DNA of 64,000 bases from Flavobacteriales bacterium (GCA_016712025.1 JADJRW010000024.1:29753-93752); one strand, 5' to 3'. Shown: positions 22,879 through 39,299, counted from the stretch's first letter. The notes: a model not told the origin generated them from the letters alone. Program-made: numbers and translations.

Positions 22879-24192
22879 TCACTGCAACACAACACGGAAC
22901 GTATGCACGAAGCTCGCGTTGAGGTAGGGATGTTGGCTGCCGATCAGGACGCGTTCGCCTCCTTCGCTGAAGATCCCGATGGCGCGCAGGCCCTGGCCGG
23001 GGATCACGGTGGTGGTGGTGCCGGGCTCCAACCCGGGGGATCCCAGACCTACCACTTCAAGATCGCTGGTGATGTCGCCCTCGAAAAAGGGCTGTAACGC
23101 GCTGCTCTCATGCACTTGGGTCACAAGCTCCAGACTTCCGTTGTGCAGCCCGGCACAATAGCTCGCTACCGGTCGATCGGCGGAGGAAAGCCCCGTGAGA
23201 ACACGCGGGCCATTGTTCACTTCGTTCGCATTGGCGAAGCGCGCTACCAAGGGTTTGATCGTGTTCGCATCGCTCGGGTCGGGTCGGTGACCCACGAGCA
23301 GGAAGGCATCACCGAGCCACTGCAGTTGTTGTGGTTCGGCGTTCATGATGGGCTGATTGTCCGCTTGAAGTGTGTTGCTCCCTGCAGCGATCCATCCGCC
23401 CGTGGCGGCGCTGAAGCCGATGGCACCCAGCGTATGGGAGGTCCCTGGCTGGCTTTGGTCCACGAGTAGCACGGCGTGGTCGTTCCCCGGATCGCAGCTC
23501 AAAGCGTGCAAACGATCGTCCGCGCTGTTCAGCGCGATGTCGGTTTGGGTGTTCACATCGGTGTTGCCGTTGGTGCCGAAGCGGAACAATCGGACGCCCG
23601 CAGCGCTGGAGGTCTCCCATCGGGCAGCCACCACCAGCGAACCGTTCATTGGTTCGCACAGTGCTCGAATCCGCGGCAGGCCGTCCAGATCACGCGTAGC
23701 GCCATCGATGTTCACCTGCACCACTCCTCCGGAGATGAGGTAGCGGCGGTAGGGTGCGCCGATGGAACTGCCATCGCGTGCGATGTGGTGGACGATCACA
23801 TGCAGCCGGTCCTCGAGTTCCACTTGACGGCCGATCCCCACCACCAGGATGGATCCATCGCTCTGAGGCGCGAAGTCAGTGTACAAAAGTTCGTTTTGCT
23901 GGAAGGTGATGTTCTCCGCCGTGCGCGGAGTGCGTTCGGATCGATACGTGTTCCCAAGATCCCCTTCGGCGTTCATCAATTGCAGAAAGGAAGTTCGGCG
24001 ATCCACAGGGGAACTCTTGCATAGCAGGATCTGTCCGCCCCAGGGATCCGCCTTCACTGCCGCACATACCAGTTCGTAGGTACGGTAGCTGCTTATTGGC
24101 GGCGCCTCCTCCTGCGGGTCGTTCTTCCGGCAGGCGCCGAAGAAGAGCGTGCAACACACCAGTGCGAACGTGCTGTATCGTGCGCCCTTCAT
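22879..24192 (-). CDS. Hypothetical lipoprotein
   Basis: 437-aa ORF with lipobox-like N-terminus MKGARYSTFALVCCTLFFGAC. The ATG overlaps the upstream gene's stop (ATGA at 24189-24192). No recognisable catalytic motif. Confidence 0.8.
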   Translation of the reverse strand: MKGARYSTFALVCCTLFFGACRKNDPQEEAPPISSYRTYELVCAAVKADPWGGQILLCKSSPVDRRTSFLQLMNAEGDLGNTYRSERTPRTAENITFQQNELLYTDFAPQSDGSILVVGIGRQVELEDRLHVIVHHIARDGSSIGAPYRRYLISGGVVQVNIDGATRDLDGLPRIRALCEPMNGSLVVAARWETSSAAGVRLFRFGTNGNTDVNTQTDIALNSADDRLHALSCDPGNDHAVLLVDQSQPGTSHTLGAIGFSAATGGWIAAGSNTLQADNQPIMNAEPQQLQWLGDAFLLVGHRPDPSDANTIKPLVARFANANEVNNGPRVLTGLSSADRPVASYCAGLHNGSLELVTQVHESSALQPFFEGDITSDLEVVGLGSPGLEPGTTTTVIPGQGLRAIGIFSEGGERVLIGSQHPYLNASFVHTFRVVLQ

Positions 24193-25283
24193 TTGAAGAT
24201 CCTGTTGTTGGGATGGTAGCGCAACACATACTGCAGTCCGATCGCCACACCACCTCCGGAAAGCGAGAATTTGCCGTCGACCCAGTAGTAGTTGGTGAGC
24301 AACTCGGTCTCGGTATAGGTGGGTTCATTCTTGGTGATCCGATCCAACGCGTAGCGGTAGTGCCCTTCCACGAAGAGGACCACATGCCCCACTTTGTAGC
24401 CTACGCCTAGACCTCCGCCCACCGCGATCTGTTCGGTCTTTCGCTCACTCGCACGTTCCAGGGTTTTCGGGGCCAGGAAGCGCAGGCCGTCGCCCGTGCG
24501 TTCAATATCCGCCGTGGCGCTTTGCAGCAGCATGTAGCTGCCTTCGGCGATCAGGTAAGGCACCCAGGAACAGTTCTTGATCCAGAACATCTTCTTGACG
24601 CCGAGACCCAAGGGAATGAACGTCAGCTTTTCGCCGTAGCGCACCCCCGTGCTGTTGGCCTCCAAGTTCCATTCGCTCCATCCCCCGCTGATGCGCAAGG
24701 CGAGGTTGGGAACCATGTCCCATTCCGCGTGTGCGCCCGTCTCCCAACCCAAGGTGCCTTTGTATTTCGGCGGTGCGTCCGCCTCGAAAACTTCCGGCGG
24801 GTCCTCCAGGTCCAGATCGCTTCGGTGCCCTTCGAAGTGGAGGCCCACACGCCACTGGCCGTGGTCTTTGCGCAGTTGCCCGGGCCCGGCACCACGGCTG
24901 CCCGCCAACCGCTCATAGGTGGTGAAAAGCTCCTCCTTGATGGGCAGGCCCACGATGATCGGATCGTACGGTTTCAGCACATACCCCCGGTCGTTACGGA
25001 ACAGTTGTTCCATACTTCGGCGCATGGCCTTGATGGAATCGTTGCGCGCCTCGATCACCGCCTTGAGGAAGACGATACGTTGCAGTTGGTCCTTGTCTTT
25101 GCGGCACTCCGCACACAGACTATCCAGGAGCACCCAGGCTTCGTTCAGGCGCCCGTCCTGATCATAAAGCGTGTAAGCCCGGCCGTACGCCTGCTCGCAA
25201 CTGGTGGCGTCCTGTGCCCGGGTGCCCAGTGTCAGGACCGCTGCGACAAGGAGCGGCAGTATCCGGGGGGTCAATTCTCGCAT
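24189..25283 (-). CDS. Putative outer-membrane beta-barrel protein with an N-terminal helical domain
   Basis: Signal MRELTPRILPLLVAAVLTLGTRAQ. N-terminal about 120 aa are helical/Cys-containing. The C-terminal about 220 aa show alternating-hydrophobic beta-strand periodicity (RVGLHFEGH, ALRISGGWSEWNL, IAVGGGLGVGYKVGHVVLFVEGHYRYAL, GGGVAIGLQYVLRY). The start overlaps the upstream gene's end by 13 nt. Confidence 0.65.
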   Translation of the reverse strand: MRELTPRILPLLVAAVLTLGTRAQDATSCEQAYGRAYTLYDQDGRLNEAWVLLDSLCAECRKDKDQLQRIVFLKAVIEARNDSIKAMRRSMEQLFRNDRGYVLKPYDPIIVGLPIKEELFTTYERLAGSRGAGPGQLRKDHGQWRVGLHFEGHRSDLDLEDPPEVFEADAPPKYKGTLGWETGAHAEWDMVPNLALRISGGWSEWNLEANSTGVRYGEKLTFIPLGLGVKKMFWIKNCSWVPYLIAEGSYMLLQSATADIERTGDGLRFLAPKTLERASERKTEQIAVGGGLGVGYKVGHVVLFVEGHYRYALDRITKNEPTYTETELLTNYYWVDGKFSLSGGGVAIGLQYVLRYHPNNRIFK

Positions 25284-26929
25284 GCGGGTTCCGGGGTTCC
25301 TTCGCCGATGTACTGATCCCATTCGGTCGCCGTGAGTTCGCGGCCCACCAGCGTACAGATCCGTTGCGCCATGCCTTTGGTGCTGATCAGAACGCGCCGC
25401 ACGGTGCGATCCTCCGAGCCAAGGTAAAGCACATCGGTATTGCCGAACGCCAGCACATTGGGGATGCCCGTCAGCGGGAGGTGCATGGGGGAGGTGGTCC
25501 CCTCCGGATCCACAACGCTCAAGGTGCGCACCGCATCCACCAATGCGATCCGGCCGCCGGGGCCCACGGCCAATACTTCCACCCGCTGCCCGTTGCCCGC
25601 AAAGCGCGTCCGGGTCGAGCGGCTGGTCACATCCAACGCTACCACGGTGCCGCTATGCGTGCCAATGCAAACTTCGCCGGGGGAACCCGGTGCGATGCTG
25701 TGCGCGCGAGCCGCATCACTGAGCGTGGCGGTGGTGAGCGATCCGTCCTTGGAAAGGATCGATATTTTTTCCGTGCCATGGACACCTAGGATCCGATCGT
25801 TGCGCGGCTCCAGCACCAGTGCGCGCACCGTTCCACCGGCTTTGTGCTGTTGAACCATGCGCAACGTCTTGCCCTCCACGGCCCACACCACCAGGTTGCC
25901 TTCGCGATCGCCGCTCACCAACGCGGTGCCATCGGCGAAAGCCGCCATCGCCGTGATGTCCTCGGCGTGCGGTGTCTTCTGTGCGGAGGCGATCACCGCA
26001 CCGTCTTTCGTGGAACAGATGGTGATGGTATGTGCTATGTCGGTCAGGAGCAGAACACCTTGCCCCAGGAAGGCACGTCCACCGGAAGCACCTGCATGCG
26101 CCGAAGCATCCGCAACCACATGCTTGCTCCAACCAGCGGGATCTATGCCGAGCAATTTGCCATCGTTGCCCAGCGCCCAGAGCTCGGCACCATGCATGCG
26201 CAACGCGCGGGGACCGGAGCCCAGCCGGTCCGCACCCGGTGGAGCGGCACGCTCCAATTCGTCCAGTGAACCTTGCAGTGCACGTATCAGTTCATCCTTG
26301 TGGACGTCGCCACCGGCTCTTTCCATGGTGCGCAATGCGTGCAAGGCCATGAGCGCGCGGGGCTGCGGTGCGCCTTTTACGGCCATGCTGTTCTGCGCTA
26401 GCTTGCTTGCCTGCAAGCGGCGGTTGGCCTCGTTCGTCCGTTGCTGTTCCACCGTAATGGAATCGGCACGGGCATCGGCCAGATCACGTTGTGCCTTCTC
26501 TTCAGTGCGCGCTTGTTGTTCGTTCTTCAGCGCGGCCTCCTTCGCGCGTGTTTGTTTTTTCGCTTCCACGGCCTGGGCGATCGCTTCGTTGGAGGCGGCC
26601 TTCTCCGCGTCGTACACGCGCTTCAGCTCCTCGTTGCCTTTCATCAGGTTGTCCAGGTAGGTCTCGGCGAATTCCTTTTGCCGTTCCGCTTGGAACCGTG
26701 CCAGCGAAGAGCGCTCGAGTTCGGCGCGCAAACTATCGCCCTCGGCGCTTAGGGCATGGACTTGTTTCTGAGCGCTCCCCTTGCCGCGAAGTGCCCAGAA
26801 CCCCATCGCGCCAAAGCCCGCCGCCAGGATGGGCCTCTTCGGTTGCGGCACCGATGATGCCACTTCTGATGAGGCCGCATCCGCTGCCGCATTGCCCGCC
26901 GCATGTGCCACCTTGGTGCGCGAAACCAT
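25271..26929 (-). CDS. Membrane-anchored coiled-coil + WD40-like beta-propeller protein
   Basis: Candidate TM ILAAGFGAMGFWAL. A long charged coiled coil (RAELERSSLARFQAERQKEFAETYL...EAALKNEQQARTEEKAQRDLADARAD). Repeated propeller-like blades (GDREGNLVVWAVEG, TVRALVLEPRNDRILGVHG, HSGTVVALDVTS, VEVLAVGPGGRIALVD). Start is uncertain: ATG 26929 or 26806. The ORF part above 26929 is antisense to the neighbouring kinase. Confidence 0.7.
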   Translation of the reverse strand: MVSRTKVAHAAGNAAADAASSEVASSVPQPKRPILAAGFGAMGFWALRGKGSAQKQVHALSAEGDSLRAELERSSLARFQAERQKEFAETYLDNLMKGNEELKRVYDAEKAASNEAIAQAVEAKKQTRAKEAALKNEQQARTEEKAQRDLADARADSITVEQQRTNEANRRLQASKLAQNSMAVKGAPQPRALMALHALRTMERAGGDVHKDELIRALQGSLDELERAAPPGADRLGSGPRALRMHGAELWALGNDGKLLGIDPAGWSKHVVADASAHAGASGGRAFLGQGVLLLTDIAHTITICSTKDGAVIASAQKTPHAEDITAMAAFADGTALVSGDREGNLVVWAVEGKTLRMVQQHKAGGTVRALVLEPRNDRILGVHGTEKISILSKDGSLTTATLSDAARAHSIAPGSPGEVCIGTHSGTVVALDVTSRSTRTRFAGNGQRVEVLAVGPGGRIALVDAVRTLSVVDPEGTTSPMHLPLTGIPNVLAFGNTDVLYLGSEDRTVRRVLISTKGMAQRICTLVGRELTATEWDQYIGEGTPEPACEN

Positions 26930-28844
26930 CGAGCGGGCCGATGCCACAGCGGATACCGCTGCGCGGATCACCGTGCTGGAAGAGGGGCTTGACGCCATGC
27001 CCCGCGAAGGCGCCGCGCACTGTGAACGCGAACTGCTGGTGGAATTGGCCGAGCTGCATGCAGGCACAGGCCGCACCGAAAGGCTGATCAGCGTATGCGA
27101 AGCCGCCATCCGGCCGGGTATGGGGCTGGATGCCGAACAGACCGCCCGTTTGAAAATGAAACTGGCACGGGCCTATTTCCAGGCAGGCCTGCCCCGTTCG
27201 TTCGATCTGGCCAAGGATGTGTTCCTCTACCTGGAGGAGATGAACGTGCGCAGCGACCGCATGCTGGAGGCCACGGACCTGCTGGTGAACACCTACGACC
27301 TGACCGGGGAGCTCACCGAGTGCCGCAAATTGTTGAGCGAGGCGCTGAAGAAGGCCGAAGCGGAAAGGGACATTCGTTGGACCACCGATCTGCTCGATCG
27401 TCTAGGCGTCTTGGCGGTGAAGCAGGGCGACGGCAAAGCGGCGGTGGCCTTGCACGAACGCTCGTTGACGGAACTCGCGCGCTTCTTTCGGAACGGTGCG
27501 GTGCGCGATACGCTGGTGCGCCATGTGCAACAGCGGCAGCGCCAGGCGAGCAATGGTCTCACCACGAGCACCGACACGCTCACGGAACTGCTCACCGAAC
27601 GGCAGTATCTGGTCATGCGCCACCGCGCGCTGAAGCTCTTGGGTGATGCGCAACGCGCCTCCCATGCGGACGAGCGCGCTGCGCGGGCTTACCTCGAAGC
27701 ATCGGCCATGGCGGCCACCGCGCACATCCCGGAACTGGTGCCGTCCTTCACCGAATTGGGGGAGATACGCGTCGCGCAGGGCGATCCCCGAGAAGCCGCG
27801 CGCCTCGGCGAACAAGGCCATGCGGATGCATTGCAACGCCGTGATATGGTCCGCGCGCAACGCGCCGCAAAACTGCTCTACCAAGCGTACAAAGCACAGG
27901 GCGATGCGGTGAAGGCGCTGCACATGTTCGAACTCCAGGGCCAGTATTCCGATTCCCTGAACAACGAAAGTTTTCGCATGGGCCTCCTAAAGAACCAGGT
28001 GACCTACGAGGTGCGCGATGACAGTTTGCGTATGTCGCTCGCCATCGTCGAAGGGCAACGCGACACCGCCTTCGCGCGGGCCGAAGCCCGCACCAATCGC
28101 AACCGGGCGCTTATGGTGGGTGGTGTGGCCGTGTTGCTCCTCATCGGCGGTGGGCTTTGGTGGCGCACCGATCGCAAACGCCGCAAGGAGCGCTTCGAGA
28201 AGGATGCTGCCCGCCTGGAGACCCAAGCTCTCCGTAGCCAGATGAACCCCCACTTCATCTTCAACGCGCTGAACTCGATCAATGCCTATGTTCAGAAGAA
28301 CGACCAGGACAGCGCCAGCAGCTACCTCACGAAGTTCGCGCGGGTGATGCGCAGCGTACTGGAGAACAGCCGCCATGCGGAAGTGCCGCTGGTGCAGGAC
28401 TTGGAAACGCTGCGCGGCTACATGGACCTCGAGCGCAAGCGCATGCAGGACAAGTTCGATTTCACCATCACGGTGGACGATGCGCTGGATCCCGAGGAGG
28501 TGATGGTGCCACCACTGGTAGTACAGCCCTTTGTGGAGAACGCCATCTGGCACGGCATGGCCGGCAAGGAGGGCAAAGGCCACATCAGCTTGCGGGTCGA
28601 GCAACAGGGCAAGCAACTGCTTTGGATCATCGAGGACGATGGAGTGGGGCGGCAGGCGAAGAAGGAACCGGTAGCACAGCCGGTGGAAGGGGCCACGAAG
28701 AAAACCAGCCTTGGTACAGCGATCACCCGAAGTCGCTTGGACCTGGTGCAGAAACAATACGGCGGCAAAGCCGGCTTCCGCTACGTGGATCGACCGATCG
28801 GCACGCGCGTGGAAGTGGACATGCCCATGCATTTGCAACATTGA
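26829..28844 (+). CDS. TPR-type sensor + single TM + LytS/YehU-type histidine kinase (His_kinase + HATPase_c)
   Basis: About 440-aa helical-repeat sensor, then TM ALMVGGVAVLLLIGGGLWW followed by RTDRKRRKERFEK. LRSQMNPHFIFNALNSINAYV is the signature of LytS-type kinases. VQPFVENAIWHG and IIEDDGVG form the ATPase. No upstream in-frame extension is possible because of TGA at 26769-26771. Confidence 0.85.
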   Translation: MGLFGCGTDDATSDEAASAAALPAACATLVRETIERADATADTAARITVLEEGLDAMPREGAAHCERELLVELAELHAGTGRTERLISVCEAAIRPGMGLDAEQTARLKMKLARAYFQAGLPRSFDLAKDVFLYLEEMNVRSDRMLEATDLLVNTYDLTGELTECRKLLSEALKKAEAERDIRWTTDLLDRLGVLAVKQGDGKAAVALHERSLTELARFFRNGAVRDTLVRHVQQRQRQASNGLTTSTDTLTELLTERQYLVMRHRALKLLGDAQRASHADERAARAYLEASAMAATAHIPELVPSFTELGEIRVAQGDPREAARLGEQGHADALQRRDMVRAQRAAKLLYQAYKAQGDAVKALHMFELQGQYSDSLNNESFRMGLLKNQVTYEVRDDSLRMSLAIVEGQRDTAFARAEARTNRNRALMVGGVAVLLLIGGGLWWRTDRKRRKERFEKDAARLETQALRSQMNPHFIFNALNSINAYVQKNDQDSASSYLTKFARVMRSVLENSRHAEVPLVQDLETLRGYMDLERKRMQDKFDFTITVDDALDPEEVMVPPLVVQPFVENAIWHGMAGKEGKGHISLRVEQQGKQLLWIIEDDGVGRQAKKEPVAQPVEGATKKTSLGTAITRSRLDLVQKQYGGKAGFRYVDRPIGTRVEVDMPMHLQH

Positions 28845-28849
28845 TACCG

Positions 28850-31800
28850 ATGCGCCCCATCCCTTTCATCCTTCTTTTTTGTTCCGCTCTGCTCATAGGT
28901 TGCGGTGAGGACCAGGCATCTGGAAGATCGGACGAGGGTGACCAAAAAACCTCGAAATGCGCCAAGCGTGTGCGTGCGATCCTCGAGGAAGCCGACGCCA
29001 CAAGGGATACCACCGCGCGGATCGCCGTCTTGGAAGCCGGGCTCGCGACAATGCCTCGCAAGGGGAGTGCGCATTGTGAACGTGAACTGCTTGTGGAACT
29101 TGCTGAACTGCACGCGGGAACAGGTCGTACCGAGCGATTGATCAGTGTTTGCGAAGCGGCCATCCGACCGGAAATGGGCTTGGACCCGGAGCAGACGGCC
29201 CGGCTGAAAATGAAGTTGGCGCGCGCCTATTTCCAGGCCGGCCTGCCGCGATCGTTCGATCTGGCCAAAGATGTGTTCTTGTACCTGGAGGAGATGAACG
29301 TGCGCAGCGATCGCATGCTGGACGCCACCGAACTGCTGGTACACACCTACGAACTGACGGGCGAGTTGACGGAGTGCCGCACCTTGCTCACCGAGGCGCT
29401 GGCGAAAGCGGAGCAGGAGCGTGACATCCGCTGGACGTGTGACCTGCTTGACCGGCTGGGCACCTTGGCGGAGAAGCAAGGGGATGCGGCCGGTGGTGTA
29501 GCGTTGCACCAGCGTGCGCTGAGGGAGTTGGAGCGTTTCTTCCGGCATGGGGCGGTGCGCGACACGTTGGTGCGACGCGTGCAAGTGAGACAACGCGAGG
29601 GGAGCGCTGGGCGGACCACCAGCACCGACACGCTCACCGAACTGCTCACCGAACGACACTATCTGGTGATGCGGCACCGGGCGCTGCGTTCCCTGGGCGA
29701 TGGCTTCAGCGCGATGCACGTCTTGGACAGCGCCGCCGCCGCCTACACCGCAGCGCTATCCTTGGGCGCCACAGCGCACATCGCGGAGCTTCCCGCTCCC
29801 TACGCCGAGCTTGGTGAAGTGCGGCTCTTGCAAGGGAAGGCTTCAGAGTCGGTCCAGTTGGGAGAGCAAGCGCTGGCCATGGCGCGCGCGGCGCACGATG
29901 CTGCTCGTGCGAAGCGGGCTACCCAACTGCTCTACCGCGCCTACAAGGCCACGGGCCAGCCAGCCCAAGCCTTGCGCATGTTCGAACTCACGGGCCAGTA
30001 TTCGGATTCGCTCAATAACGAAAGCTTCAGGATGGGCCTGCTGAAGAACCAGGTGACGTACGAAGTGCGGGACGATAGTCTGCGCATGTCCTTGCAAGTG
30101 GCCGAAGGGCAGCGCGATGCGGCTGTGGCCCGCACCGAAGCCCGCACCAACCGCAACCGTGCGCTGCTTTTCGGCGGTGCCGCACTTCTACTGTTGCTCG
30201 GGGGTGCGGTCCTCCTGCTCGTAATGCGCGGTCGTCAGCGCAAGAAGGAATTGGTGCGGCAGCAAGAGATCAACGAGCGCCTTCAGCACATCGACAAACT
30301 GAAGGACCAGTTCCTGGCCAATACGAGCCACGAGCTCCGCACCCCGCTCAACGGCATCATCGGTCTGAGCGAATCGCTCTACGATGGCGTGGCCGGGGAG
30401 CCCACCGAAGCGATGCGCGAAGACCTTTCCATGATCATTTCCTCGGGCAAGCGCCTCTCGGGATTGATCAACGATATCCTGGACCTCTCCAAGCTGCGCG
30501 AGAAGGACATCGTCCTGGCCCGCAAACCGATCGATCTGCGCAGCGTGGTGGAAGTTGATCTGCGCATCACCGCACCGATGGTGGAAGGCAAGGAGATCCA
30601 ACTCATGAACGCGGTGGCCAGAGACCTGGTGCGTGTGGATGCGGACGAAGACCGGCTGCAGCAGATCCTGCTCAACCTGCTCGGCAACGCGATCAAATTC
30701 ACAGAGCGGGGCACCGTGACCGTTACTGCGCAAGAACGCGATGGCATGGTCGCGGTCTCCATCACCGATACCGGGATCGGTATACCGCAGGACAAGCTCC
30801 GGTCCATCTTCGTTGCCTTCGACCAGGCGGATGGAACCGCGCAGCGCCAGCACGGCGGAACCGGGCTTGGGCTTTCCATCACCAAGCAGCTCGTGGAACT
30901 GCACGGAGGCACCATTAACGTCGAAAGCGAGCTGGGCAAGGGCTCGGTATTCACCTTCACCTTACCTGCCACGCAGGCCGAAGCGGAGCCCATGCGGTTG
31001 AGCACCGCCTTGATGCGCGTTCGCAACGTGGCCGATACCGTCGCGCCGGTGCAAGTGGTGCACGCCCAAAAGGACGGCGCCTTCCACGTGCTCATCGTGG
31101 ACGATGAAGTGGTGAACCGCAAGGTGCTGGTGAACTATCTGGCCGATGCTCCCTTCGAGATCCATCAGGCTGCGAGCGGACCGGAGGCGCTCGCGCTTTT
31201 GGAGAAGACACCGCTGGATGTGGTGCTGCTCGATGTGATGATGCCGGGCATGAGCGGCTATGAGACCTGCCAACGTATCCGGGAGAAATACCTCAGCAGT
31301 GAACTTCCCGTGATCATGCTCACGGCCAAGGACCAGGTGAACGATCTGGTGGAAGGGTTCAACACCGGCGCGAACGACTACCTGATCAAACCAGTGAACC
31401 GCAATGAGCTGATGGCACGGCTCAAGACGCACTTGAATCTGCTCAAGATCAACAATTCTTACAGCCGCTTCGTACCTCGCGATTTCCTGCGCTCCCTCGG
31501 CAAGGAGAACATCATCGATGTGAAGCTCGGCGACCAGATCAAGGACGACATCACCGTTATGTTCAGTGATATCCGTGGGTACACCACCCTGAGCGAATCC
31601 ATGACGGTCGATGAGAATTTCCGCTTCCTCAACGCCTTCATGGGGCATGTGGGACCTGTGATCCAGAAGCACCACGGCTTCGTGAACCAGTTCCTCGGCG
31701 ATGGCCTGATGACCCTGTTCCAGCGCCACCCGGAGGATTGCCTACGCGGCTCGTTGGAGATGCATGCCACCGTAGCGGAATACAACAAGAGCCGCGCGGC

Positions 31801-32317
31801 TCGGGGACGACTTCCCGTGCGTATCGGCATCGGCATGCACTACGGTTCGCTCATGATGGGCATCATCGGCGATGAGAAGCGCATGGACGCCGGGGTGGTG
31901 AGCGACACGGTGAACACCGCCGCGCGCGTCGAAGGGCTCACCAAGTATTACGGCGCTTCGATCCTGTTGAGCCAGGCCACCGTGGAACGCATAGGCGATA
32001 TCTCGGGCTACCAACATCGTTTCCTCGGGCGTGTGCTGATGAAGGGCAAGATGAAGCCGATGGCTATCTATGAGTTCTACGGCGGCGACCCGCAGCCCAC
32101 CATCGATCGTCGTGAGCGCACCGCGAAAGAATTCGCCGCCGGTCTCGCGGCCTATTACGAACGGCGGTTCGCAGAAGCGGCCAAACACTTCAGCAAGGTC
32201 ATCGACCTCGATCCGGAGGACCTCGCCGCCCAGCTCTACACGGGCAACTGCACTCGCTATATCGTGCATGGCGTGCCCGAGGAGTGGACCGGTGTGGAGG
32301 AGATGATCGGCAAGTAG
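28850..32317 (+). CDS. Hybrid TPR-sensor histidine kinase - receiver - class III nucleotidyl cyclase
   Basis: Lipoprotein-like signal MRPIPFILLFCSALLIGCG. TPR sensor paralogous to 26829..28844. TM ALLFGGAALLLLLGGAVLLLV. HisKA FLANTSHELRTPLNGIIGLSE. HATPase GTGLGLSITKQLVELHGGTINVESELGKGSVFTFTLP. REC VLIVDDEVVNRKVL...VVLLDVMMPGMSGYE...DYLIKP. Cyclase VMFSDIRGYTTLSE, FLGDGLMTLF and VVSDTVNTAARVEG. TAG stop at 32315-32317. Confidence 0.9.
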   Translation: MRPIPFILLFCSALLIGCGEDQASGRSDEGDQKTSKCAKRVRAILEEADATRDTTARIAVLEAGLATMPRKGSAHCERELLVELAELHAGTGRTERLISVCEAAIRPEMGLDPEQTARLKMKLARAYFQAGLPRSFDLAKDVFLYLEEMNVRSDRMLDATELLVHTYELTGELTECRTLLTEALAKAEQERDIRWTCDLLDRLGTLAEKQGDAAGGVALHQRALRELERFFRHGAVRDTLVRRVQVRQREGSAGRTTSTDTLTELLTERHYLVMRHRALRSLGDGFSAMHVLDSAAAAYTAALSLGATAHIAELPAPYAELGEVRLLQGKASESVQLGEQALAMARAAHDAARAKRATQLLYRAYKATGQPAQALRMFELTGQYSDSLNNESFRMGLLKNQVTYEVRDDSLRMSLQVAEGQRDAAVARTEARTNRNRALLFGGAALLLLLGGAVLLLVMRGRQRKKELVRQQEINERLQHIDKLKDQFLANTSHELRTPLNGIIGLSESLYDGVAGEPTEAMREDLSMIISSGKRLSGLINDILDLSKLREKDIVLARKPIDLRSVVEVDLRITAPMVEGKEIQLMNAVARDLVRVDADEDRLQQILLNLLGNAIKFTERGTVTVTAQERDGMVAVSITDTGIGIPQDKLRSIFVAFDQADGTAQRQHGGTGLGLSITKQLVELHGGTINVESELGKGSVFTFTLPATQAEAEPMRLSTALMRVRNVADTVAPVQVVHAQKDGAFHVLIVDDEVVNRKVLVNYLADAPFEIHQAASGPEALALLEKTPLDVVLLDVMMPGMSGYETCQRIREKYLSSELPVIMLTAKDQVNDLVEGFNTGANDYLIKPVNRNELMARLKTHLNLLKINNSYSRFVPRDFLRSLGKENIIDVKLGDQIKDDITVMFSDIRGYTTLSESMTVDENFRFLNAFMGHVGPVIQKHHGFVNQFLGDGLMTLFQRHPEDCLRGSLEMHATVAEYNKSRAARGRLPVRIGIGMHYGSLMMGIIGDEKRMDAGVVSDTVNTAARVEGLTKYYGASILLSQATVERIGDISGYQHRFLGRVLMKGKMKPMAIYEFYGGDPQPTIDRRERTAKEFAAGLAAYYERRFAEAAKHFSKVIDLDPEDLAAQLYTGNCTRYIVHGVPEEWTGVEEMIGK

Positions 32318-32358
32318 ACGCGGTTCTTCGCCATCCACCCTTACTACCGCGATCGCAG

Positions 32359-33789
32359 ATGCGTACCCGCCTTTTCCAACTCGCTGGACCATTGCTCGCC
32401 GCGCTGGTGGCTTGGGCCTGCTGGCATTTGGGCGCGTCGGCCGCGTGCATGGCAGGTATCGTGGCGTGGATGGCCCTGTGGTGGATCAGCGAAGCGGCCC
32501 CTTTGGCGATCACGTCGTTGTTACCGCTGGTGCTCTTTCCTCTGTGCGGTGTGCTGGGTACGGCGGAAACAGCGATCAACTATGGGCGCGATATCATCTT
32601 CCTTTTCCTAGGTGGATTTCTGCTCGCGCTAGGGATCGAGCGCAGTGGGCTGCATCGGCGTGTCGCGCTGATCATCGTGGGCCGCGTGGGGACATCGCCC
32701 GCGCGGTTGGTGCTGGGCATCATGCTCGCCAGTGGCCTGCTAAGTATGTGGATCAACAGCACGGCTTGTGTGCTGGTGATGCTACCTATCGCCCTGAGCC
32801 TGGTGGATGGATTGCGCACTGGCGAGCGCCAAGATCGGTTCGCCGTGGCGATGCTTCTCGCGGTGGCTTACGGCGCCACCATCGGTGGCGTCGCTACACC
32901 GGTGGGCACGCCACCGAACCTGGTGTTCATGGAACTGGCGAAGCAGTTGCTCCCGGACCGCCAAGTGATCGGTTTCGGACAGTGGATGGCGTTCGGTGTT
33001 CCGTTCGCGGCGATCTACATGCTCTTGGCGTGGGGCCTCCTTGTGCTGATGCACACCCGCCATCTACCAAGTGATCCGCATGGAGCGGCCGATGTGCGTG
33101 CCGAGTTGAAGGCGCTGGGTCGCATGCGTACCGCCGAGCATGTCGCCGCGTGCTTCTTCACCCTGGCCGCTGTGCTCTGGATCACCGGCGATGATCTGCC
33201 GATCAGCGATACGTTCACGCTACACGGATGGCGGTCGCTCACCGGGTGGAACGGTATCAGCGATGCGGGCGTGGCCATAGCGTGCGCGATGCCCTTGTTC
33301 TTGATCTCGGTCGGTGCATCGGGCGACAAGAAGCCACTGCTGGACTGGGATTTCGCGCAAGCGCGCGTGCCATGGGGCGTGCTCTTGCTCATCGGTTCCG
33401 GTTTCGCCCTGGCGAACGGCTTCGCAGCGAGCGGCTTGGACCAGGTGTTGGGGAGCGCGTTGGCGGGCTGGCATTTCGGTTCTTCGGCGATGCAGGTGGG
33501 GGTGCTTGGGCTCGGGGTGATACTCCTGAGCGAGTTGGGCAGCAACACCGCCGTGGCCAGTTTGGTGCTCCCGATCCTGGCGAGCACGGCGCCGGCATGG
33601 GGCCTGGATCCGGTGTCGATCATGATCCCCGCCACGGTCGCCGCCAGTTGTGGCTTCATGCTGCCCATCGCCAGCCCCATGCAGGCGATCGTCTTCGGGA
33701 CCGGGCGAATTCCCGTGGGCACCATGGTGAGGGCGGGTATATGGATGGACGTGATCGGGGTGGTGTTGCTCGTGCTCTTCTTCATGTGA
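32359..33789 (+). CDS. SLC13/DASS-family anion (sulfate/di-tricarboxylate):cation symporter
   Basis: 476-aa polytopic membrane protein. MALWWISEAAPLAITSLLPLVLFPLCGVL and SELGSNTAVASLVLPIL are hairpin-loop motifs typical of DASS permeases. ATG at 32359 chosen over the upstream GTG/ATG extension. Confidence 0.85.
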   Translation: MRTRLFQLAGPLLAALVAWACWHLGASAACMAGIVAWMALWWISEAAPLAITSLLPLVLFPLCGVLGTAETAINYGRDIIFLFLGGFLLALGIERSGLHRRVALIIVGRVGTSPARLVLGIMLASGLLSMWINSTACVLVMLPIALSLVDGLRTGERQDRFAVAMLLAVAYGATIGGVATPVGTPPNLVFMELAKQLLPDRQVIGFGQWMAFGVPFAAIYMLLAWGLLVLMHTRHLPSDPHGAADVRAELKALGRMRTAEHVAACFFTLAAVLWITGDDLPISDTFTLHGWRSLTGWNGISDAGVAIACAMPLFLISVGASGDKKPLLDWDFAQARVPWGVLLLIGSGFALANGFAASGLDQVLGSALAGWHFGSSAMQVGVLGLGVILLSELGSNTAVASLVLPILASTAPAWGLDPVSIMIPATVAASCGFMLPIASPMQAIVFGTGRIPVGTMVRAGIWMDVIGVVLLVLFFM

Positions 33790-33884
33790 GCCGATCGCCG
33801 CGTTAGGGATCCTGCCGACTTCTTGCGATCTTCAACGGCTCTTGCGCTGGGCGATAGTGCCCTGCGCCAACCAATGATCCTTGC

Positions 33885-34829
33885 ATGATGACACGCCTAC
33901 TCACGTTCACGCTGCTATTCACCTGCGTTGCGATCACCGCCCAAGGGCAGGTGGCTTTCTCCTACCCAACCGCCTTGCCGGAACAAGGCCAGCACTCCTT
34001 TGTTGAGCGGACCGCGGTTTGGACCGGTTATTCCGCCGCCCCGCCTTGGAACGTTACTGGACTCACGTTCAGCTTGCTCGGAGCGCGCGAATTGGTCTGG
34101 ACGCCCGCCGCTTCAACTCCCTTCGCTGCACAATTCCCACAGGCCACCGATTGTATACTCGATATCAACCAGTTCCCGCCATCCTACGACTATTACGAAG
34201 TGAGCTCCGCCGGTGTAGCGTATTGGGGCGCGGCTGACACCGGTCCGGTCGAAGTACTTACCGAACCCTTCACGTTCCGGGTTTTCCCTATGATGCTCTC
34301 TACCGGGTACAACGACACCTTCATTTTGGACGGAGATACCGTTTTCGCTGCGGTAAACCCGCTGGCCAAAGGAGATCTGCTTACACCCTTTGGCGACGTC
34401 GCCAGCGTTGGGGTCACGGAGGTGGTGGTGGACTTTGGACTGGGTGCCGAGTTCAGCTACTTGTTCTATCGGGAAGGGAACGCAATGATGCCCGTGGCGC
34501 AATACGATCCGGATGACCAAGCCATGATCCTTTATTCGCCAGGGAACATCAGCCCGCTCGCAGTGCCCGAGCAGGTGTTTCCGGCAGTGACCATGGGTCC
34601 GAATCCCGTGACGAACGACCTGTTAAAGTTGCGTTGGATCGGTGCGACCTCACCGGTGGACTTGTGCATTATTTCCGCAGAAGGTCGTTCGGTATTGCAA
34701 CGGCGGGTGTTGGCCTCGGCCGATGCTTTGGACGTGGACCTACATGGCCTTGCCCCCGGCACCTATGCCGTGCGGATCGAGCAGAAAGGGGCCCCTTTCT
34801 GGCAAGAGCGTTTTGTGCTGGTGCGTTGA
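33885..34829 (+). CDS. Hypothetical secreted protein with T9SS tail
   Basis: Signal MMTRLLTFTLLFTCVAITAQGQ. C-terminal VTMGPNPVTNDLLKLRW...GTYAVRIEQKG. Confidence 0.8.
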   Translation: MMTRLLTFTLLFTCVAITAQGQVAFSYPTALPEQGQHSFVERTAVWTGYSAAPPWNVTGLTFSLLGARELVWTPAASTPFAAQFPQATDCILDINQFPPSYDYYEVSSAGVAYWGAADTGPVEVLTEPFTFRVFPMMLSTGYNDTFILDGDTVFAAVNPLAKGDLLTPFGDVASVGVTEVVVDFGLGAEFSYLFYREGNAMMPVAQYDPDDQAMILYSPGNISPLAVPEQVFPAVTMGPNPVTNDLLKLRWIGATSPVDLCIISAEGRSVLQRRVLASADALDVDLHGLAPGTYAVRIEQKGAPFWQERFVLVR

Positions 34830-34862
34830 ACTTTCTTTTGACCCCGTCCCGGCTCTTCCATA

Positions 34863-34884
34863 AACGGTCGTACCGTTCTTTTCT
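34863..34884 (+). terminator. Weak hairpin + T-tract downstream of 33885..34829
   Basis: AACGGT-cgt-ACCGTT (6-bp stem, 3-nt loop) followed by CTTTTCT. Confidence 0.3.
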
Positions 34885-34908
34885 GGCTCAGAGGCGCTGC
34901 TCATTGGA

Positions 34909-35418: not shown

Positions 35419-36652
35419 ATGGAGTTGAAAGAGGGCAAGTACTTGATCGGTGGTGTGCCCGCCGAAGATCTCGCCGCGATCGCCGGCACGCCCGTGTATG
35501 TGTATGATGCAAGCGTGATGGCTCGGCAGGTGCATCGCCTGCGTGCGGCCTACGCGCCGTTGCCCTTGCGGATCATGTACGCGTGCAAGGCCCTTCCGAA
35601 CCTAGCAGTGCTTCGCTGTATGAAGGAGCTCGGTTGCGGAATCGATGCAGTAAGCACTCAAGAAGTGGAGCTCGCTCTTCGCGCTGGCTTCGCGCCGCAG
35701 GACATCCTCTTCACCCCGAACATGGTCGCTTACGCGGAGTACCAGCGCGCCGTGGACTTGGGCGTGCACATCAACATCGATTCGCTGAGCGTGCTGGAGC
35801 ACTTCGGTCATGACTTCGGTGACACGCGTGCCGGTGTGCATCCGTTTCAATCCGCACATCATGGCCGGTGGTCATGAGCGCATCAGCACCGGTCATGTGG
35901 ATAGCAAGTTCGGGATCAGCATCCACCAGTTGCGTCATGTGCAGCGCGTGGTGGCCAGCACGGGCCTGCGTGTGAACGGCCTGCACATGCACACCGGCAG
36001 CGACATCCTCGATGCGGAGGTCTTCCTGCAGGGCGCCGAGATCATCCTAGAGATCGCGGAACAGTTCCCGCACCTCACCTTCCTCGATTTGGGCAGCGGC
36101 TACAAGGTGCCGTACAAGGAGGATGATATCGCCACCGACGTTGAGGAACTCGGGGCCCGGCTCAGTGCACGTATCGTACAGTTCAATGCAGGTCGCACCA
36201 CACCGATCGAGCTTTGGGCCGAGCCCGGCAAATTCCTCGTGAGCGAAGCGGGCACCTTGCTTGCGCGTGTCACACAGGTGAAGCAGACCACCGCCACCGT
36301 CTTCGTTGGCGTGGACACCGGGCTCAATCATCTCATCCGACCGATGTTCTACGGCAGCTACCACCACATCGTGAACGCAAGTGCGCCGGACGGGAAGCCG
36401 CGCATCTATACCGTGGCAGGCTACATCTGCGAAACGGACACCTTCGCGCAGGACCGCAAGCTCGCCGAGGTGCATGAGGGCGACCTGCTCGCCTTCCGCA
36501 ATGCAGGTGCCTATGGTCATAGCATGGCAAGCAACTACAACAGCCGCTTGCGTCCGCCGGAGATCCTGGTGAAGGATGGAAAGGCGCAGGTGATACGCAG
36601 GCGTGAGACGCTGGATGACTTGCTGGCCACGCAGATGGGGACTGGTGCATGA
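35419..36652 (+). pseudogene. lysA: Diaminopimelate decarboxylase, split by a +1 frame break near 35821-35830
   Basis: ORF 35419..35877 (…YACKALPNLAVL…GIDAVSTQEVELAL…NIDSLSVLEHFGHDFGDT) and ORF 35810..36652 (VPVCIRFNPHIMAGGHERISTGHVDSKFGI…HMHTGSDI…DLGSGYKVPY…EPGKFLV…GYICETDTF…GAYGHSMASNYN) together make a complete fold-III PLP decarboxylase. Confidence 0.9.
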
Positions 36653-38442
36653 ACGTCCGGCGCCTGACTCAGATAGCGTTCGGGGCCGCAGTGGTCCTGT
36701 TGTGCCTTCCTGCCCATGGACAAGATCCCAGGGTCACGCTCCTGCAAGAGCTGCGTGCCAATGGTGATCGCGACTCGCTTGAAGCCGAGGCAAAGCGCCT
36801 GCTCGTTGATGCAACGACGAAGGATCTCCTCTACGAAGCCGAATACCACTGGGCCTTCGCCCGCAGCGGCAAGGATGACCCACTGGGTGCTGTGCAGCAC
36901 GCTCAAGAGGCACTGCTCGCTGCGCGTGAGCTTGCGGACACGTCGCGCATCCTGGGCTCGCTCTATCAGCTCACCAAGTTCAACGTGGAAGGACGCCACT
37001 ACGAAGAGGCCGACCGCTTCCGTCGGGAGCACTTGGCGCTGGCGCGGGCATATGGGCGCGACACCATCCAACATGCACTCGCCCTCAACAGCATGGGCAG
37101 TATGTATAGTCGTATCGAACGACCGGACTCCGAGGAGTACTGCTACCGCGAAGGGCTGAAGTTGCTCGGCGATCGCAAGCACCTGGTGAAGCATGCCTTG
37201 CTTGGCAACCTCGCAAGCACGTTGAGCGCGCGAGGCGAACACACGGAAGCGGCGCAACTGCATGAACAGGTCCTCGCCGAGCTGGACAGCACCGATCTGC
37301 CCAACAAAGCCTGGACGCTGAGCAACCTCGGTCGGTCATTGATGTATGCCAAGCGATACGACGAAGCCATCGCGGCGTTCGATACGGGCGACTCGTTGAA
37401 TGCGGCCAGTGGGAATGCGCTCGACCTGGCGATCGATCTCGCTGAGCTGCGCGCCGAGTGCCTCGAAGCCATGGGGAATATCACGGGTGCGTACACGATG
37501 ATCAGGCGTGCCCGCGATCTGCAAGACACGCTCTTCGACCGGTCCATGAACGAGCAGTACTTGGAACTGGAGAAGCGCTTCGAGACCCAACTGAAGGAGG
37601 AGGAGATCGCGCGGTTGGATTCCGAAGCGCGGGAACGCGAGGAGCGGCTGCGCGTGCGTAATGTGCAGCTCTACGGAAGTCTCGCCATTGCAGTACTCGC
37701 TCTGGGCGCAGTCGTGCTCGTGTGGCGCAACCTTCGACAGAAGAGGAGGTACTCCGCCACATTGGAGAAGTTGAACGCGGAACTGAGCGAGCAGAAATCC
37801 CGCATCGAGGAGATCAATCGACTACTGCAACTGAAGGTGCTGCGCACGCAGATGAACCCGCACTTCATCTACAACAGCCTCAACGCCATCCACAACCTGG
37901 TGCGCAAGGGCGAGGCGGCTGCCGCCAGCGCCTACCTCGATGGCTTCGCGCGCTTGCTACGCATGGTACTGGACCACAGCGTGAAGGAGCGCGTTCCACT
38001 TGCGGAGGAGATCGCCTTCCTGCGCCAGTACCTGAAGCTGGAAGCGATGCGCTTCGAGGACGGGCTGGACTTTGTCGTGGATGTCGATCGCGCACTGCTC
38101 GATGATGAGGACCTGCTCGTACCCACACTGCTCGTGCAGCCCTTCTTGGAGAACGCGGTGTGGCACGGGCTTGCACCGAAGCAAGGCGAGAAGAAGTTGA
38201 ACGTGCGTTTCGCTATGCGCGGCGAACAAGTGGTCTGTACAGTGGAGGACAATGGCGTCGGAAGGAACGCCGCGCCAAAACGCTCACACCCTGATGGTAG
38301 TGCGAGCCTGGGCCTTCAACTCACGAACGAGCGCTTGCAGCTGCTGGCCTTCAAGCTCGGGGATACAGGCCGCGTGACGTTCACCGACCTGGTGGAAGAC
38401 GGTGTTCCTGCAGGGACGCGGGTTGAAGTGGTGTTGGGGTAA
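36649..38442 (+). CDS. TPR sensor + LytS/YehU-type histidine kinase
   Basis: ATGA overlap with the lysA stop. Signal/TM MNVRRLTQIAFGAAVVLLCLPAHGQ. TPR-like repeats. TM LYGSLAIAVLALGAVVLVW. LRTQMNPHFIYNSLNAIHNLV. LVQPFLENAVWHG. TVEDNGVG. Confidence 0.9.
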   Translation: MNVRRLTQIAFGAAVVLLCLPAHGQDPRVTLLQELRANGDRDSLEAEAKRLLVDATTKDLLYEAEYHWAFARSGKDDPLGAVQHAQEALLAARELADTSRILGSLYQLTKFNVEGRHYEEADRFRREHLALARAYGRDTIQHALALNSMGSMYSRIERPDSEEYCYREGLKLLGDRKHLVKHALLGNLASTLSARGEHTEAAQLHEQVLAELDSTDLPNKAWTLSNLGRSLMYAKRYDEAIAAFDTGDSLNAASGNALDLAIDLAELRAECLEAMGNITGAYTMIRRARDLQDTLFDRSMNEQYLELEKRFETQLKEEEIARLDSEAREREERLRVRNVQLYGSLAIAVLALGAVVLVWRNLRQKRRYSATLEKLNAELSEQKSRIEEINRLLQLKVLRTQMNPHFIYNSLNAIHNLVRKGEAAAASAYLDGFARLLRMVLDHSVKERVPLAEEIAFLRQYLKLEAMRFEDGLDFVVDVDRALLDDEDLLVPTLLVQPFLENAVWHGLAPKQGEKKLNVRFAMRGEQVVCTVEDNGVGRNAAPKRSHPDGSASLGLQLTNERLQLLAFKLGDTGRVTFTDLVEDGVPAGTRVEVVLG

Positions 38443-38450
38443 GGTCTTTT

Positions 38451-38532
38451 ACCGCCACGACGCGGCGAGCGCCAAGGACCCGCCACGAAATGCAGCGTTG
38501 CGCAATCGTTGCGTTCGTTGCGTCGTGGCGGT
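38451..38532 (+). promoter_or_regulatory. 13-bp perfect inverted repeat enclosing three GTTGCG direct repeats, between kinase and response regulator
   Basis: ACCGCCACGACGC (38451-38463) pairs with GCGTCGTGGCGGT (38520-38532). The spacer contains caGCGTTGCGcaatcGTTGCGttcGTTGCG, and GGGATTTCTTC follows. Confidence 0.35.
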
Positions 38533-38561
38533 GGGATTTCTTCACCACCTAACTTGCTCCC

Positions 38562-39299
38562 ATGATCACGGCGGTGCAGGTGGATGACGAAGCGAGCGCA
38601 CGCGAATTCCTGCGCTCCCGCTTGCACGATGTGGCCCCTGAAGTTCAGGTGCTCGGCGAAGCGAAGAACATCGACGAAGCCGCACGCTTGATCGCGGACA
38701 CCAAACCGCAACTCGTCTTCCTCGATGTGGAGATGCCCGGTGGCGATGGCTTCGAACTGCTCAAGCGCCTCGGCCGCTGGGACTTCGATGTCATCTTCAC
38801 GACCAGTCACCAGCACTACGCCATACAGGCCATCCGCTTCAGCGCGCTGGATTACCTGCTGAAGCCCGTGCAGGCGGATGAACTGCGCGCGGCGATCGAT
38901 CGGCATGTGGAGCGCAAGGGCCACGCTTCCACCGATGTGCAGCAGCAGTTCCTGAACAACATCGCGCACCGCGACGAGCAGGCCCTGAAGCTCACCCTCA
39001 CGCACGGCGATCGTACGCACGCCGTTGCCCCCGCCGACATCGCTTGGTGTCAGGCCGACGACAACTATACCGCGCTGCACCTCGCCGATGAGCGCCGCTT
39101 TGTCTCCGCACGCACACTGAAGGACTACGACGAGATGCTCACCCCGCTTGGCTTCATCCGTGTGCACAAGAGTGCGCTCGTGAACCGCCGCCATGTGGAT
39201 GGCATCGATGGCGAAGGACGCGTACGCCTGCGCAACGGCGTGCGCGTGGAGATCAGCCGGAGGAGGTTGGAGGAGGTGACGCTCGCATTGCGAGGTTGA
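38562..39299 (+). CDS. LytR/AlgR-family response regulator (REC + LytTR DNA-binding domain)
   Basis: MITAVQVDDEASAREFL...LVFLDVEMPGGDGFELL...DYLLKP (REC). ADIAWCQADDNYTALHLADERRFVSARTLKDYDEML...FIRVHKSALVN (LytTR). Confidence 0.9.
   Translation: MITAVQVDDEASAREFLRSRLHDVAPEVQVLGEAKNIDEAARLIADTKPQLVFLDVEMPGGDGFELLKRLGRWDFDVIFTTSHQHYAIQAIRFSALDYLLKPVQADELRAAIDRHVERKGHASTDVQQQFLNNIAHRDEQALKLTLTHGDRTHAVAPADIAWCQADDNYTALHLADERRFVSARTLKDYDEMLTPLGFIRVHKSALVNRRHVDGIDGEGRVRLRNGVRVEISRRRLEEVTLALRG

Follow-up and report, generated by a model that had tools for sequence, protein, structure and literature searches.

One periplasmic sensor on two classes of kinase: a tandem gene pair in a wastewater Flavobacteriales bacterium best read as the product of sensor replacement

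How do two adjacent genes come to share a whole extracytoplasmic sensor and, directly behind the membrane, continue as kinases of two different classes? The question is raised by a 64-kb stretch of DNA from an uncultured activated-sludge Flavobacteriales bacterium (GCA_016712025.1, JADJRW010000024.1:29753-93752; "the window" denotes this whole stretch of 64,000 nucleotides). Gene A (26829..28844) and gene B (28850..32317) lie in tandem on the same strand with a 5-nucleotide (nt) spacer (the open reading frame (ORF) list gives A as 26781/26829..28844), and they are probably co-transcribed. A first-pass annotation made from the sequence alone described a shared tetratricopeptide repeat (TPR) region and transmembrane (TM) helix of roughly 70% identity, blocks of 33 to 44 identical residues, and complete divergence after the TM helix into a LytS-type kinase in A and a HisKA-HATPase-REC-class III cyclase in B. 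Our results bear out all three statements. BLASTP aligned residues 3-426 of A with residues 15-437 of B at 309/426 identities (73%, E = 0) and found no significant match beyond, the common part amounting to about 430 amino acids (aa) of sensor plus half of the TM helix. A repeat scan found 72-77% nucleotide direct repeats, 2054 nt apart, that mirror the sensor duplication, three identical blocks (33, 44 and 34 aa) are present, and the divergence into different transmitters is seen both in Pfam matches and in a three-way alignment. The layout of the pair is as follows.

26829..28844, plus strand: gene A in its window form, with TPR sensor, TM helix and LytS/YehU-type histidine kinase (Pfam)
26835..28106, plus strand: sensor module of A, a periplasmic TPR-like superhelix and juxtamembrane segment (73% identity to the B sensor; family alignment)
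28107..28163, plus strand: TM helix of A, ALMVGGVAVLLLIGGGLWW, a hydrophobic run followed by RTDRKRRKER
28218..28829, plus strand: transmitter of A, with His_kinase at 28218-28457 (NPHF at 28245-28256) and HATPase_c at 28518-28829 (Pfam, motifs)
28850..32317, plus strand: gene B, with lipoprotein signal peptide, A-type TPR sensor, TM helix, HisKA, HATPase_c, REC, class III cyclase and C-terminal TPR hairpin (Pfam)
28850..28903, plus strand: signal peptide of B with lipobox LLIGC, Cys18 (read from the sequence; Cys column kept family-wide)
28904..30160, plus strand: sensor module of B (AlphaFold2 model; Foldseek match to LGN/Pins TPR)
30161..30226, plus strand: TM helix of B, ALLFGGAALLLLLGGAVLLLVM
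30302..30973, plus strand: kinase of B, with HisKA at 30302-30502 (H-box SHELRTP at 30326-30346) and HATPase_c at 30644-30973 (Pfam, motifs)
31088..31423, plus strand: receiver domain of B, with the phospho-acceptor Asp in LLDVMMP at 31226-31246 (Pfam, motifs)
31535..32065, plus strand: class III nucleotidyl cyclase of B, Guanylate_cyc (Pfam 1e-17; alignment to 2w01 and 6fht)
27018-27116 in A and 29072-29170 in B, plus strand: identical block 1, 33 aa
27135-27266 in A and 29189-29320 in B, plus strand: identical block 2, 44 aa
27939-28040 in A and 29993-30094 in B, plus strand: identical block 3, 34 aa, with the juxtamembrane motif DSLNNESFRMGLLKNQVTYEVRDDSLRMSL, kept across the family

The first-pass annotation saw in this pair a duplicated sensor fused to different transmitters. 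The duplication stands, but the arrangement is not symmetric. A is best read as the ancestral architecture and B as a derived chimera, a kinase-cyclase gene whose own TPR sensor appears to have been replaced by a copy of A's, because the homologues of the sensor all carry PF06580, the output cassette of B is widespread on other sensors, and the gene neighborhood of a cassette relative with a different sensor is the same. A search with the B sensor gave 11 true homologues of 40-73% identity, and in 11/11 of these the output was PF06580; B itself and its 75-77% identical orthologues (P0014 and P0015 in the collection) were not returned by this search, and the count therefore leaves out the B orthologues, which were identified in other ways. 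Because an exhaustive HMMER search of 1.84 billion representatives yielded only 4 matches below 1e-30 and 9 below 1e-10, the A-type sensor appears to be a very small family. The output cassette of B, on the other hand, has at least 8000 homologues at E <1e-10 in several phyla, fused to TPR, 7TMR-DISM, PAS, GAF, Y_Y_Y and dCache sensors. Its closest non-orthologous relative is P0016, with 68% identity across the output cassette used as query; compared pairwise, the two proteins align strongly from the TM helix onward to the C-terminus, and the front of P0016 is an unrelated canonical TPR array. Three further features of the window enter the argument.

30203..30239, plus strand: chimera breakpoint, B residues ~452-464 (three-way alignment, 20-aa window identities)
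32380..33789, plus strand: anion symporter of the DASS family, immediately following B (NCBIfam TIGR00785 at 241 bits, cutoff 198.6; linkage common to the P0016 locus)
36649..39299, plus strand: gene C, a third TPR-TM-His_kinase with canonical TPR matches (36649..38442), and a LytTR regulator (38562..39299)

On its contig (L004) the P0016 gene lies, as B does, directly upstream of a DASS symporter, which is 57% identical to that of the window, and the symporter is followed by a TPR-His_kinase 51% identical to gene C and then by a LytTR regulator 87% identical to that of the window. The breakpoint falls within ~12 codons that cover the stop-transfer patch and the half of the TM helix facing the cytoplasm, and A, B and P0016 all share the motif NRNRAL..GG...LLL.GG just before it.

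When would the swap have happened? In a scan of species-representative genomes, A-type sensors were found only in Flavobacteriales metagenome-assembled genomes (MAGs), several of them from activated sludge by title, and in one genome labelled as an uncultured Chryseobacterium sp. Besides the window, A and B are both present in two other Flavobacteriales MAG species (L001 and L005, which belong to the same species, and L006), and A occurs without B in the more distant relatives L002, L007, L008 and L009. A neighbor-joining tree with 500 bootstraps supported an A clade (100%), a B clade (71%) and a joint A+B clade (100%), while P0002 and P0003 branched outside; the distance to the outgroup P0002 was the same for A and B (0.42-0.43). 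By this distribution and tree, the swap would have taken place after the split from the A-only lineages and before the split of the three B-carrying species.

Orthologues of A are 93-95% identical and those of B 75-77%. An evolutionary rate of the B sensor ~5x that of A was considered and is mostly ruled out by the mosaic genomes, the similar dN/dS (the ratio of non-synonymous to synonymous substitution rates; 0.12 vs 0.14) and the equal distance to the outgroup. Segment by segment, the proportion of synonymous differences (pS) among the three genomes varied from 0.00 to 0.83. Between L005 and L006 it was 0.00-0.08 over most of the output domains of B (codons 501-1100; exceptions were one window of 0.31 and one of 0.12) and at the 3' end of A, but 0.3-0.5 in the sensor of A, and between the window and L005 it was 0.03 in parts of the A sensor. 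This mosaic points to homologous recombination between the three "species" lineages, and the gap in orthologue identity between A and B mostly reflects coalescence depth.

Is the likeness of the two sensors kept by selection or by exchange between the copies? In block 1, 18 of the 33 codons differ between A and B and all 18 differences are synonymous, exactly as the first-pass annotation had counted. Over 466 aligned codons pS was 0.64 and the proportion of non-synonymous differences (pN) 0.21, corresponding to dS ~1.46, dN 0.245 and dN/dS 0.17 (Nei-Gojobori); third positions were 49% identical, and in no 40-codon window did pS fall below 0.32. For the paralogous sensors dN/dS was 0.15-0.17, with a sensor-wide value of 0.16-0.17 rather than one near 1. 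Orthologous sensors gave 0.12 for A and 0.14 for B, and whole orthologous genes 0.08 for A and 0.14 for B, with neighboring genes at 0.08-0.29. The duplication is old, as had been proposed, its synonymous sites are saturated, and both copies, kept in three species, are under purifying selection.

To separate selection from exchange, codon identity at positions with identical amino acids was compared with a random synonymous choice under local codon usage. The same-codon fraction between A and B was 0.41 (expected 0.41) over the stretch that holds block 1 (alignment columns 84-133) and 0.45 in block 3, the random-choice expectation for these two blocks being 0.41-0.44. Since these fractions equal the random-codon expectation, the identity of block 1 is kept by selection alone, and blocks 1 and 3 owe nothing to recent exchange. 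Selection for extra synonymous divergence, which would suppress recombination between the repeats and had been considered on account of a pS >0.75 in identical blocks, is ruled out by the same agreement (0.41-0.45) with random choice.

The claim that recent gene conversion played no part thus stands for block 1 and for the sensor module taken overall; the 44-aa block 2 is the exception. Over this block and its flank (columns 134-189; within A 27132-27342 and B 29186-29396) the same-codon fraction was 0.71 vs 0.43 expected (z = 4.2), and it was raised in the A'-B' and B-B' comparisons too. In 3/3 genomes the longest perfect A/B nucleotide run falls in block 2 (29 nt in the window, 32 nt, and 78 nt in L006; 95th percentile after shuffling, 25-28 nt), and the A and B genes of L006 share a lineage-specific synonymous variant there. 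From the raised codon identity, the long perfect runs and the shared variant we conclude that recurrent short-tract gene conversion has probably acted over ~100-130 nt at block 2; nucleotide-level constraint is the alternative. As an observation in its own right, a tract of ~100-130 nt in this interval (27132-27342 and 29186-29396) is near-identical in nucleotides across the six A and B genes of the three species.

What kind of sensor is shared? The mature sensor and TM helix of B were modelled in AlphaFold2 with the family alignment. The model (mean predicted local distance difference test score (pLDDT) 81.5) has ~9 helix pairs, a low-confidence linker and a long helix (375-452) through the membrane, with a beta-hairpin insert at residues 222-249 (pLDDT 63-74). 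The best Foldseek match in the PDB was the LGN/Pins TPR (E 7.5e-10), followed by OGT, KLC and RapF, and the Pfam models TPR_7 (26.5 bits, cutoff 27.9) and TPR_12 (21.5 bits, cutoff 30.1) matched below threshold. The sensor is therefore predicted to be a TPR superhelix of antiparallel helix pairs, and because of this fold its ligand is likely to be a peptide or protein. Mapped onto the model, blocks 1 and 2 lie on TPR helices (57-87 and 96-140) and block 3 on the juxtamembrane segment (365-398). Of ~457 aligned sensor columns, 285 are invariant across all six genes, and identity between A and B is only 42-55% at A residues ~280-360. Both TM helices are followed by an R/K-rich stretch, the N-terminus of B reads MRPIPFILLFCSALLIGC, and the topology of the sensor is extracytoplasmic in B and, through its orthologues, in A. 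The block 3 motif recurs in weaker form in the consensus of distant TPR-TM proteins, whose outputs, in a set of 69, include His_kinase (12), SpoIIE (9), HisKA (7), cyclase (6) and HisKA_3 (5). This recurrence with varied outputs supports the view of a portable TPR-juxtamembrane-TM cassette, most likely sensing a peptide or protein. The 5' parts of both sensors are opposed by long antisense ORFs on the minus strand, at 25271-27109 and 28723-29163, which are alike (MAASHTLISLSVRPVPACSS... and MAASQTLINRSVRPVPACSS...); they are the duplication mirrored in a GC-rich frame and not independent genes.

The two transmitters differ in class. A matches His_kinase PF06580 with 80.6 bits (cutoff 25.2, E 1.1e-22) and HATPase_c with 27.2 bits (cutoff 26.4), and the phospho-acceptor His motif QMNPHFIFNALN is present in A and its orthologues. 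The multi-TM sensor domain 5TMR-LYT gave no Pfam match in A, whose N-terminal part is the TPR superhelix and one TM helix. B scores 68.9 bits for HisKA, 115.4 for HATPase_c and 110 for Response_reg, and SHELRTP, LLNLLGNAIKF, DTGIGI, GGTGLGL, VDDE, LLDVMMP, MLTA and YLIKP are all present, so that B has the H-box, the N, G1 and G2 boxes and the acceptor Asp, Thr and Lys of a hybrid kinase. In the cyclase, the metal Asp residues (FSDIRG, FLGDG) and the transition-state Asn and Arg (VNTAARVE) align with those of 2w01. The catalytic motifs of kinase, receiver and cyclase are intact in B and kept in its orthologues. In class III cyclases the purine-specifying pair is Lys/Asp for ATP and Glu/Cys or Glu/Gly for GTP. 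B has neither, carrying by the 2w01 alignment Gln (VNQFLGDG; aa 947, nt 31688-31690) and Gly (DAGVVS) at these positions, and the Gln is common to the whole cassette family examined (B_L5, B_L6, P0016 and P0017). Among NCBIfam models, none matches A, and B gave only generic hybrid-kinase matches below cutoff. Elsewhere in the window, an ORF at 8634-9587 on the minus strand has weak similarity to the cyclase domain of B (24% over 219 aa, E = 1.5e-10) and may be a second class III cyclase nearby.

The surroundings of the pair offer candidate partners. In every A-type locus found, A is divergent from the same three-gene operon.

22879..26830, minus strand: divergent three-gene operon, upstream of A in L001, L002, L005, L006, L007, L008 and partly in L009
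25271..~26830, minus strand: WD40/beta-propeller protein with TM anchor and coiled coil, 5'-truncated in the window
24189..25322, minus strand: 377-aa protein (~370 aa in the other loci) with a weak match to outer-membrane protein beta-barrels
22879..24192, minus strand: 437-aa putative lipoprotein (~435 aa in the other loci)
26830..26831, no strand: site of a 220-bp gap in comparison with relatives and public sequencing runs (blastn against L001, translations, public-run contigs)

None of the three operon proteins is matched by an NCBIfam model; they may be partners of the sensor or its targets. The 64 kb contain a single LytTR response regulator (38562..39299), which is of the BtsR/LytR type and paired with kinase C; the pair is syntenic with L004 and L001, and its regulator may possibly be shared with the orphan kinase A. 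A scan of 26000-35000 gave no sigma-70 promoter, the sigma-70 model being uninformative for Bacteroidota, and terminators were at chance level. Between the symporter and gene C, a lysA-like diaminopimelate/ornithine decarboxylase gene (35419-36652) is split into two ORFs by a 1-nt insertion (+1 frameshift) at ~35824; in L001 it is one gene of 410 aa, and the split is either a consensus error or a pseudogene. The four public DNA runs examined had no reads over this position.

Taken together, the anatomy, origin and selection of the pair, as established computationally, are probably best explained in the following way. In an ancestor of the three species the TPR sensor of the kinase-cyclase gene would have been swapped for a copy of A's, with a crossover in the latter half of the TM helix or immediately behind it, at the shared NRNRAL..GG...LLL.GG motif, and purifying selection would since have kept the sensors alike with some help from local short-tract conversion. 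Both proteins would reside in the inner membrane, each with a lipoprotein signal peptide, a periplasmic TPR superhelix of ~410 aa, a juxtamembrane segment and one TM helix. We infer that the TPR groove binds a peptide or protein of the periplasm, and the juxtamembrane/TM helix would pass the change on. In A this would set autophosphorylation and, through an unlinked LytTR regulator, a transcriptional output; in B, autophosphorylation of HisKA would be followed by intramolecular transfer to the receiver Asp, switching the fused cyclase and giving a cyclic-nucleotide output.

Several observations weigh against this explanation. Three species share ~28 fixed differences between A and B before the TM helix (hand count from the alignment), which could alter specificity. 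A was first described as a LytS/YehU-type kinase with a LytTR partner; PF06580 and the NPHF motif are there, but no LytTR regulator adjoins A in the window, L001 or L002. The nucleotide product of the cyclase cannot be predicted from sequence, because the purine positions are Gln and Gly, neither Lys/Asp nor Glu/Cys. The positional orthology of B comes from the single syntenic locus L004, and the other close cassette relatives, P0017 and P0019, lie in unrelated genomic contexts. Contigs from two wastewater runs labelled as metatranscriptomes cover A and B at 93-100% identity, which hints that both genes are transcribed, with DNA carry-over being possible. Finally, A in its window form has no hydrophobic N-terminus: the ORF reads ...PKPAARMGLFGCG, and the start at 26829 is not natural.

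Could A, then, have been inactivated in this organism by a 220-bp deletion that took away its promoter, its signal peptide and the start of the WD40 gene, leaving B as the only functional gene of the two? The window sequence itself lacks the 220 bp, and the frameshift in lysA, as a second lesion, suggests decay or a poor consensus. In a blastn comparison with the syntenic contig L001 (80-91% nt identity), the ~220 bp that the window lacks fall between its positions 26830 and 26834; they comprise the intergenic region, the lipoprotein signal peptide of A and, for the WD40 gene, the first ~22 codons and half of the TM anchor. The A orthologues in L001, L005 and L006, all intact, start with MPAPAPLRPCTWLAYLAALVPILFGC, a lipoprotein signal peptide, which puts the natural start ~21 codons further upstream; distant orthologues likewise have lipobox signal peptides, and the lipobox Cys is conserved in the family. 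However, a 499-bp contig from one public wastewater run (X1) matches both flanks with 0 mismatches and holds the 220 extra bp at 26830, and a contig from another (X3) stops at 26830 with a loose end that matches L001. The deleted junction is spanned by no contig in the public wastewater runs examined. Moreover, the A protein of the window is otherwise intact and has 95-96% identity with the orthologues, at a dN/dS of 0.08-0.12. The gap most likely arose in assembly or represents a rare variant, and the loss of A is very improbable.

The remaining alternatives accept both genes and differ over what keeps the sensors alike and what they read. Repeated gene conversion of the tandem copies, rather than selection on each, could be the main force: block 2 with its raised same-codon fraction and the 78-nt perfect run in L006 speak for it, as does the lower pS of block 1 between A' and B' in L001/L005 (0.41-0.54, vs 0.64-0.76 in the window). 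But outside block 2 the synonymous sites are as random codon choice would predict, no identical run in the window exceeds 29 nt, third positions of A are no more identical to those of its own B than to those of the B of another genome (0.49-0.55 throughout), and A and B form separate clades across three species, so that we consider concerted evolution of this kind improbable as the main cause. Alternatively, the two sensors may keep a common fold and transmission element and now have different ligands or partners. The fixed differences before the TM helix and the variable region at A residues ~280-360 would fit such a divergence, and the invariant blocks, lying in the N-terminal TPRs and the juxtamembrane segment, could serve folding, dimerisation or transmission instead of ligand contact. 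The large share of columns invariant in all six genes argues the other way, as do the low and similar dN/dS of both copies and their equal distance from the outgroup, which gives no sign of an accelerated, neofunctionalising copy; we hold divergent specificity to be a tentative possibility. An unlikely variant is that the TPR module senses no chemical signal and acts as a scaffold attaching both enzymes to one complex in the periplasm or outer membrane, such as the WD40 operon products, giving them a shared location or partner. It is favored by the structural matches to the protein- and peptide-binding TPR scaffolds LGN, KLC and RapF, by the constant divergent operon, and by the occurrence of TPR-juxtamembrane-TM cassettes on many outputs (His_kinase, SpoIIE, HisKA, cyclase and HisKA_3); as binding of a protein partner is itself a form of sensing, however, it overlaps with the explanation preferred here. 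The boldest form of that preferred explanation, in which B is a chimera with A's sensor, is a signal splitter: both sensors would read a single protein or peptide cue in the periplasm, which the divergent WD40/lipoprotein operon may itself supply, and elicit a LytTR response and a second-messenger pulse in parallel. We regard it as plausible but less likely than not. If true, one TPR-juxtamembrane-TM cassette would drive two unrelated transmitters, LytS-type and HisKA-type, from a junction inside the membrane, which would be natural proof of plug-and-play transmembrane signalling, and heterodimers of the A and B sensors could be a point of cross-talk.

How does the pair compare with known systems? 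A resembles the LytS/YehU(BtsS)-type kinases with LytTR partners in having PF06580 with NPHF and a HATPase_c domain, and a BtsR/LytR-type LytTR regulator occurs in the window; it differs in having, instead of 5TMR-LYT, a periplasmic TPR superhelix and a single TM helix, and in that the LytTR gene is not adjoining. B shares its whole cassette, from the TM helix to the C-terminus, with Bacteroidota TPR-TM-HisKA-HATPase-REC-cyclase proteins (P0016, and Flagellimonas and Flavivirga entries named "tetratricopeptide repeat protein"), with 68% of residues identical in P0016 and 50-63% in many others; the C-terminal TPR hairpin and the Gln are part of what is shared. These kinase-cyclases carry canonical TPR arrays that Pfam detects, whereas the sensor of B is of the divergent A type, which elsewhere occurs only on LytS-type kinases. 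A literature search for characterised Bacteroidetes TPR-kinase-cyclase proteins found nothing specific. The peptide-binding TPR superhelices of LGN/Pins, KLC and the Rap/RRNPP receptors resemble the sensor in fold (Foldseek probability 1.0, target-normalised TM-scores 0.54-0.63), but their sequence identity is 13-17%, and the sensor of A and B is periplasmic, lipid-anchored and TM-tethered, with a beta-hairpin insert.

For the output of B, the closest solved cyclase is Cya2 of Synechocystis (PDB 2w01; E = 4e-26 over the whole catalytic domain), in which the metal Asp and the Asn and Arg align; at the purine position Cya2 has Glu, the engineered adenylate cyclase 6fht Lys, and B Gln. CyaC of Spirulina and Anabaena also has a kinase and receiver immediately upstream of a class III cyclase; it is soluble, with GAF domains and an extra N-terminal receiver, whereas B, known here from sequence, is a membrane protein with a periplasmic sensor. 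As summarised in PMC3009899, the kinase of cyanobacterial CyaC phosphorylates the adjacent receiver, which activates the cyclase. By analogy, phosphorylation of the B receiver by the intrinsic kinase would switch its cyclase, and we adopt this as a working model.

Lineage-specific expansions of histidine kinases are typically marked by domain shuffling and by orphan kinases (Alm et al. 2006, PMC1630713). The pair shares with these expansions a duplication with module exchange at the sensor/transmitter boundary and, in A, an orphan kinase without an adjoining regulator. Unlike them, it is the sensor that is duplicated and kept, the transmitters differ in class, and donor, recipient, breakpoint and an unswapped syntenic counterpart can be identified. 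Both architectures belong to known classes and no new type of system is involved; the pair is a clean natural case of domain shuffling, in which a single sensor-TM unit serves two kinase classes. It could act as a template for the engineering of chimeric receptors and as a test case for TPR-TM signalling that is independent of kinase class, and it flags a small uncharacterised sensor family with a conserved partner operon in abundant wastewater Flavobacteriales. Exchange of modules between sensors and transmitters is an accepted route by which bacterial signalling diversifies, and such events are usually too old to be reconstructed, whereas here the donor A, the recipient family, the unswapped P0016, a breakpoint of ~12 codons and retention in three species can be seen with unusual clarity.

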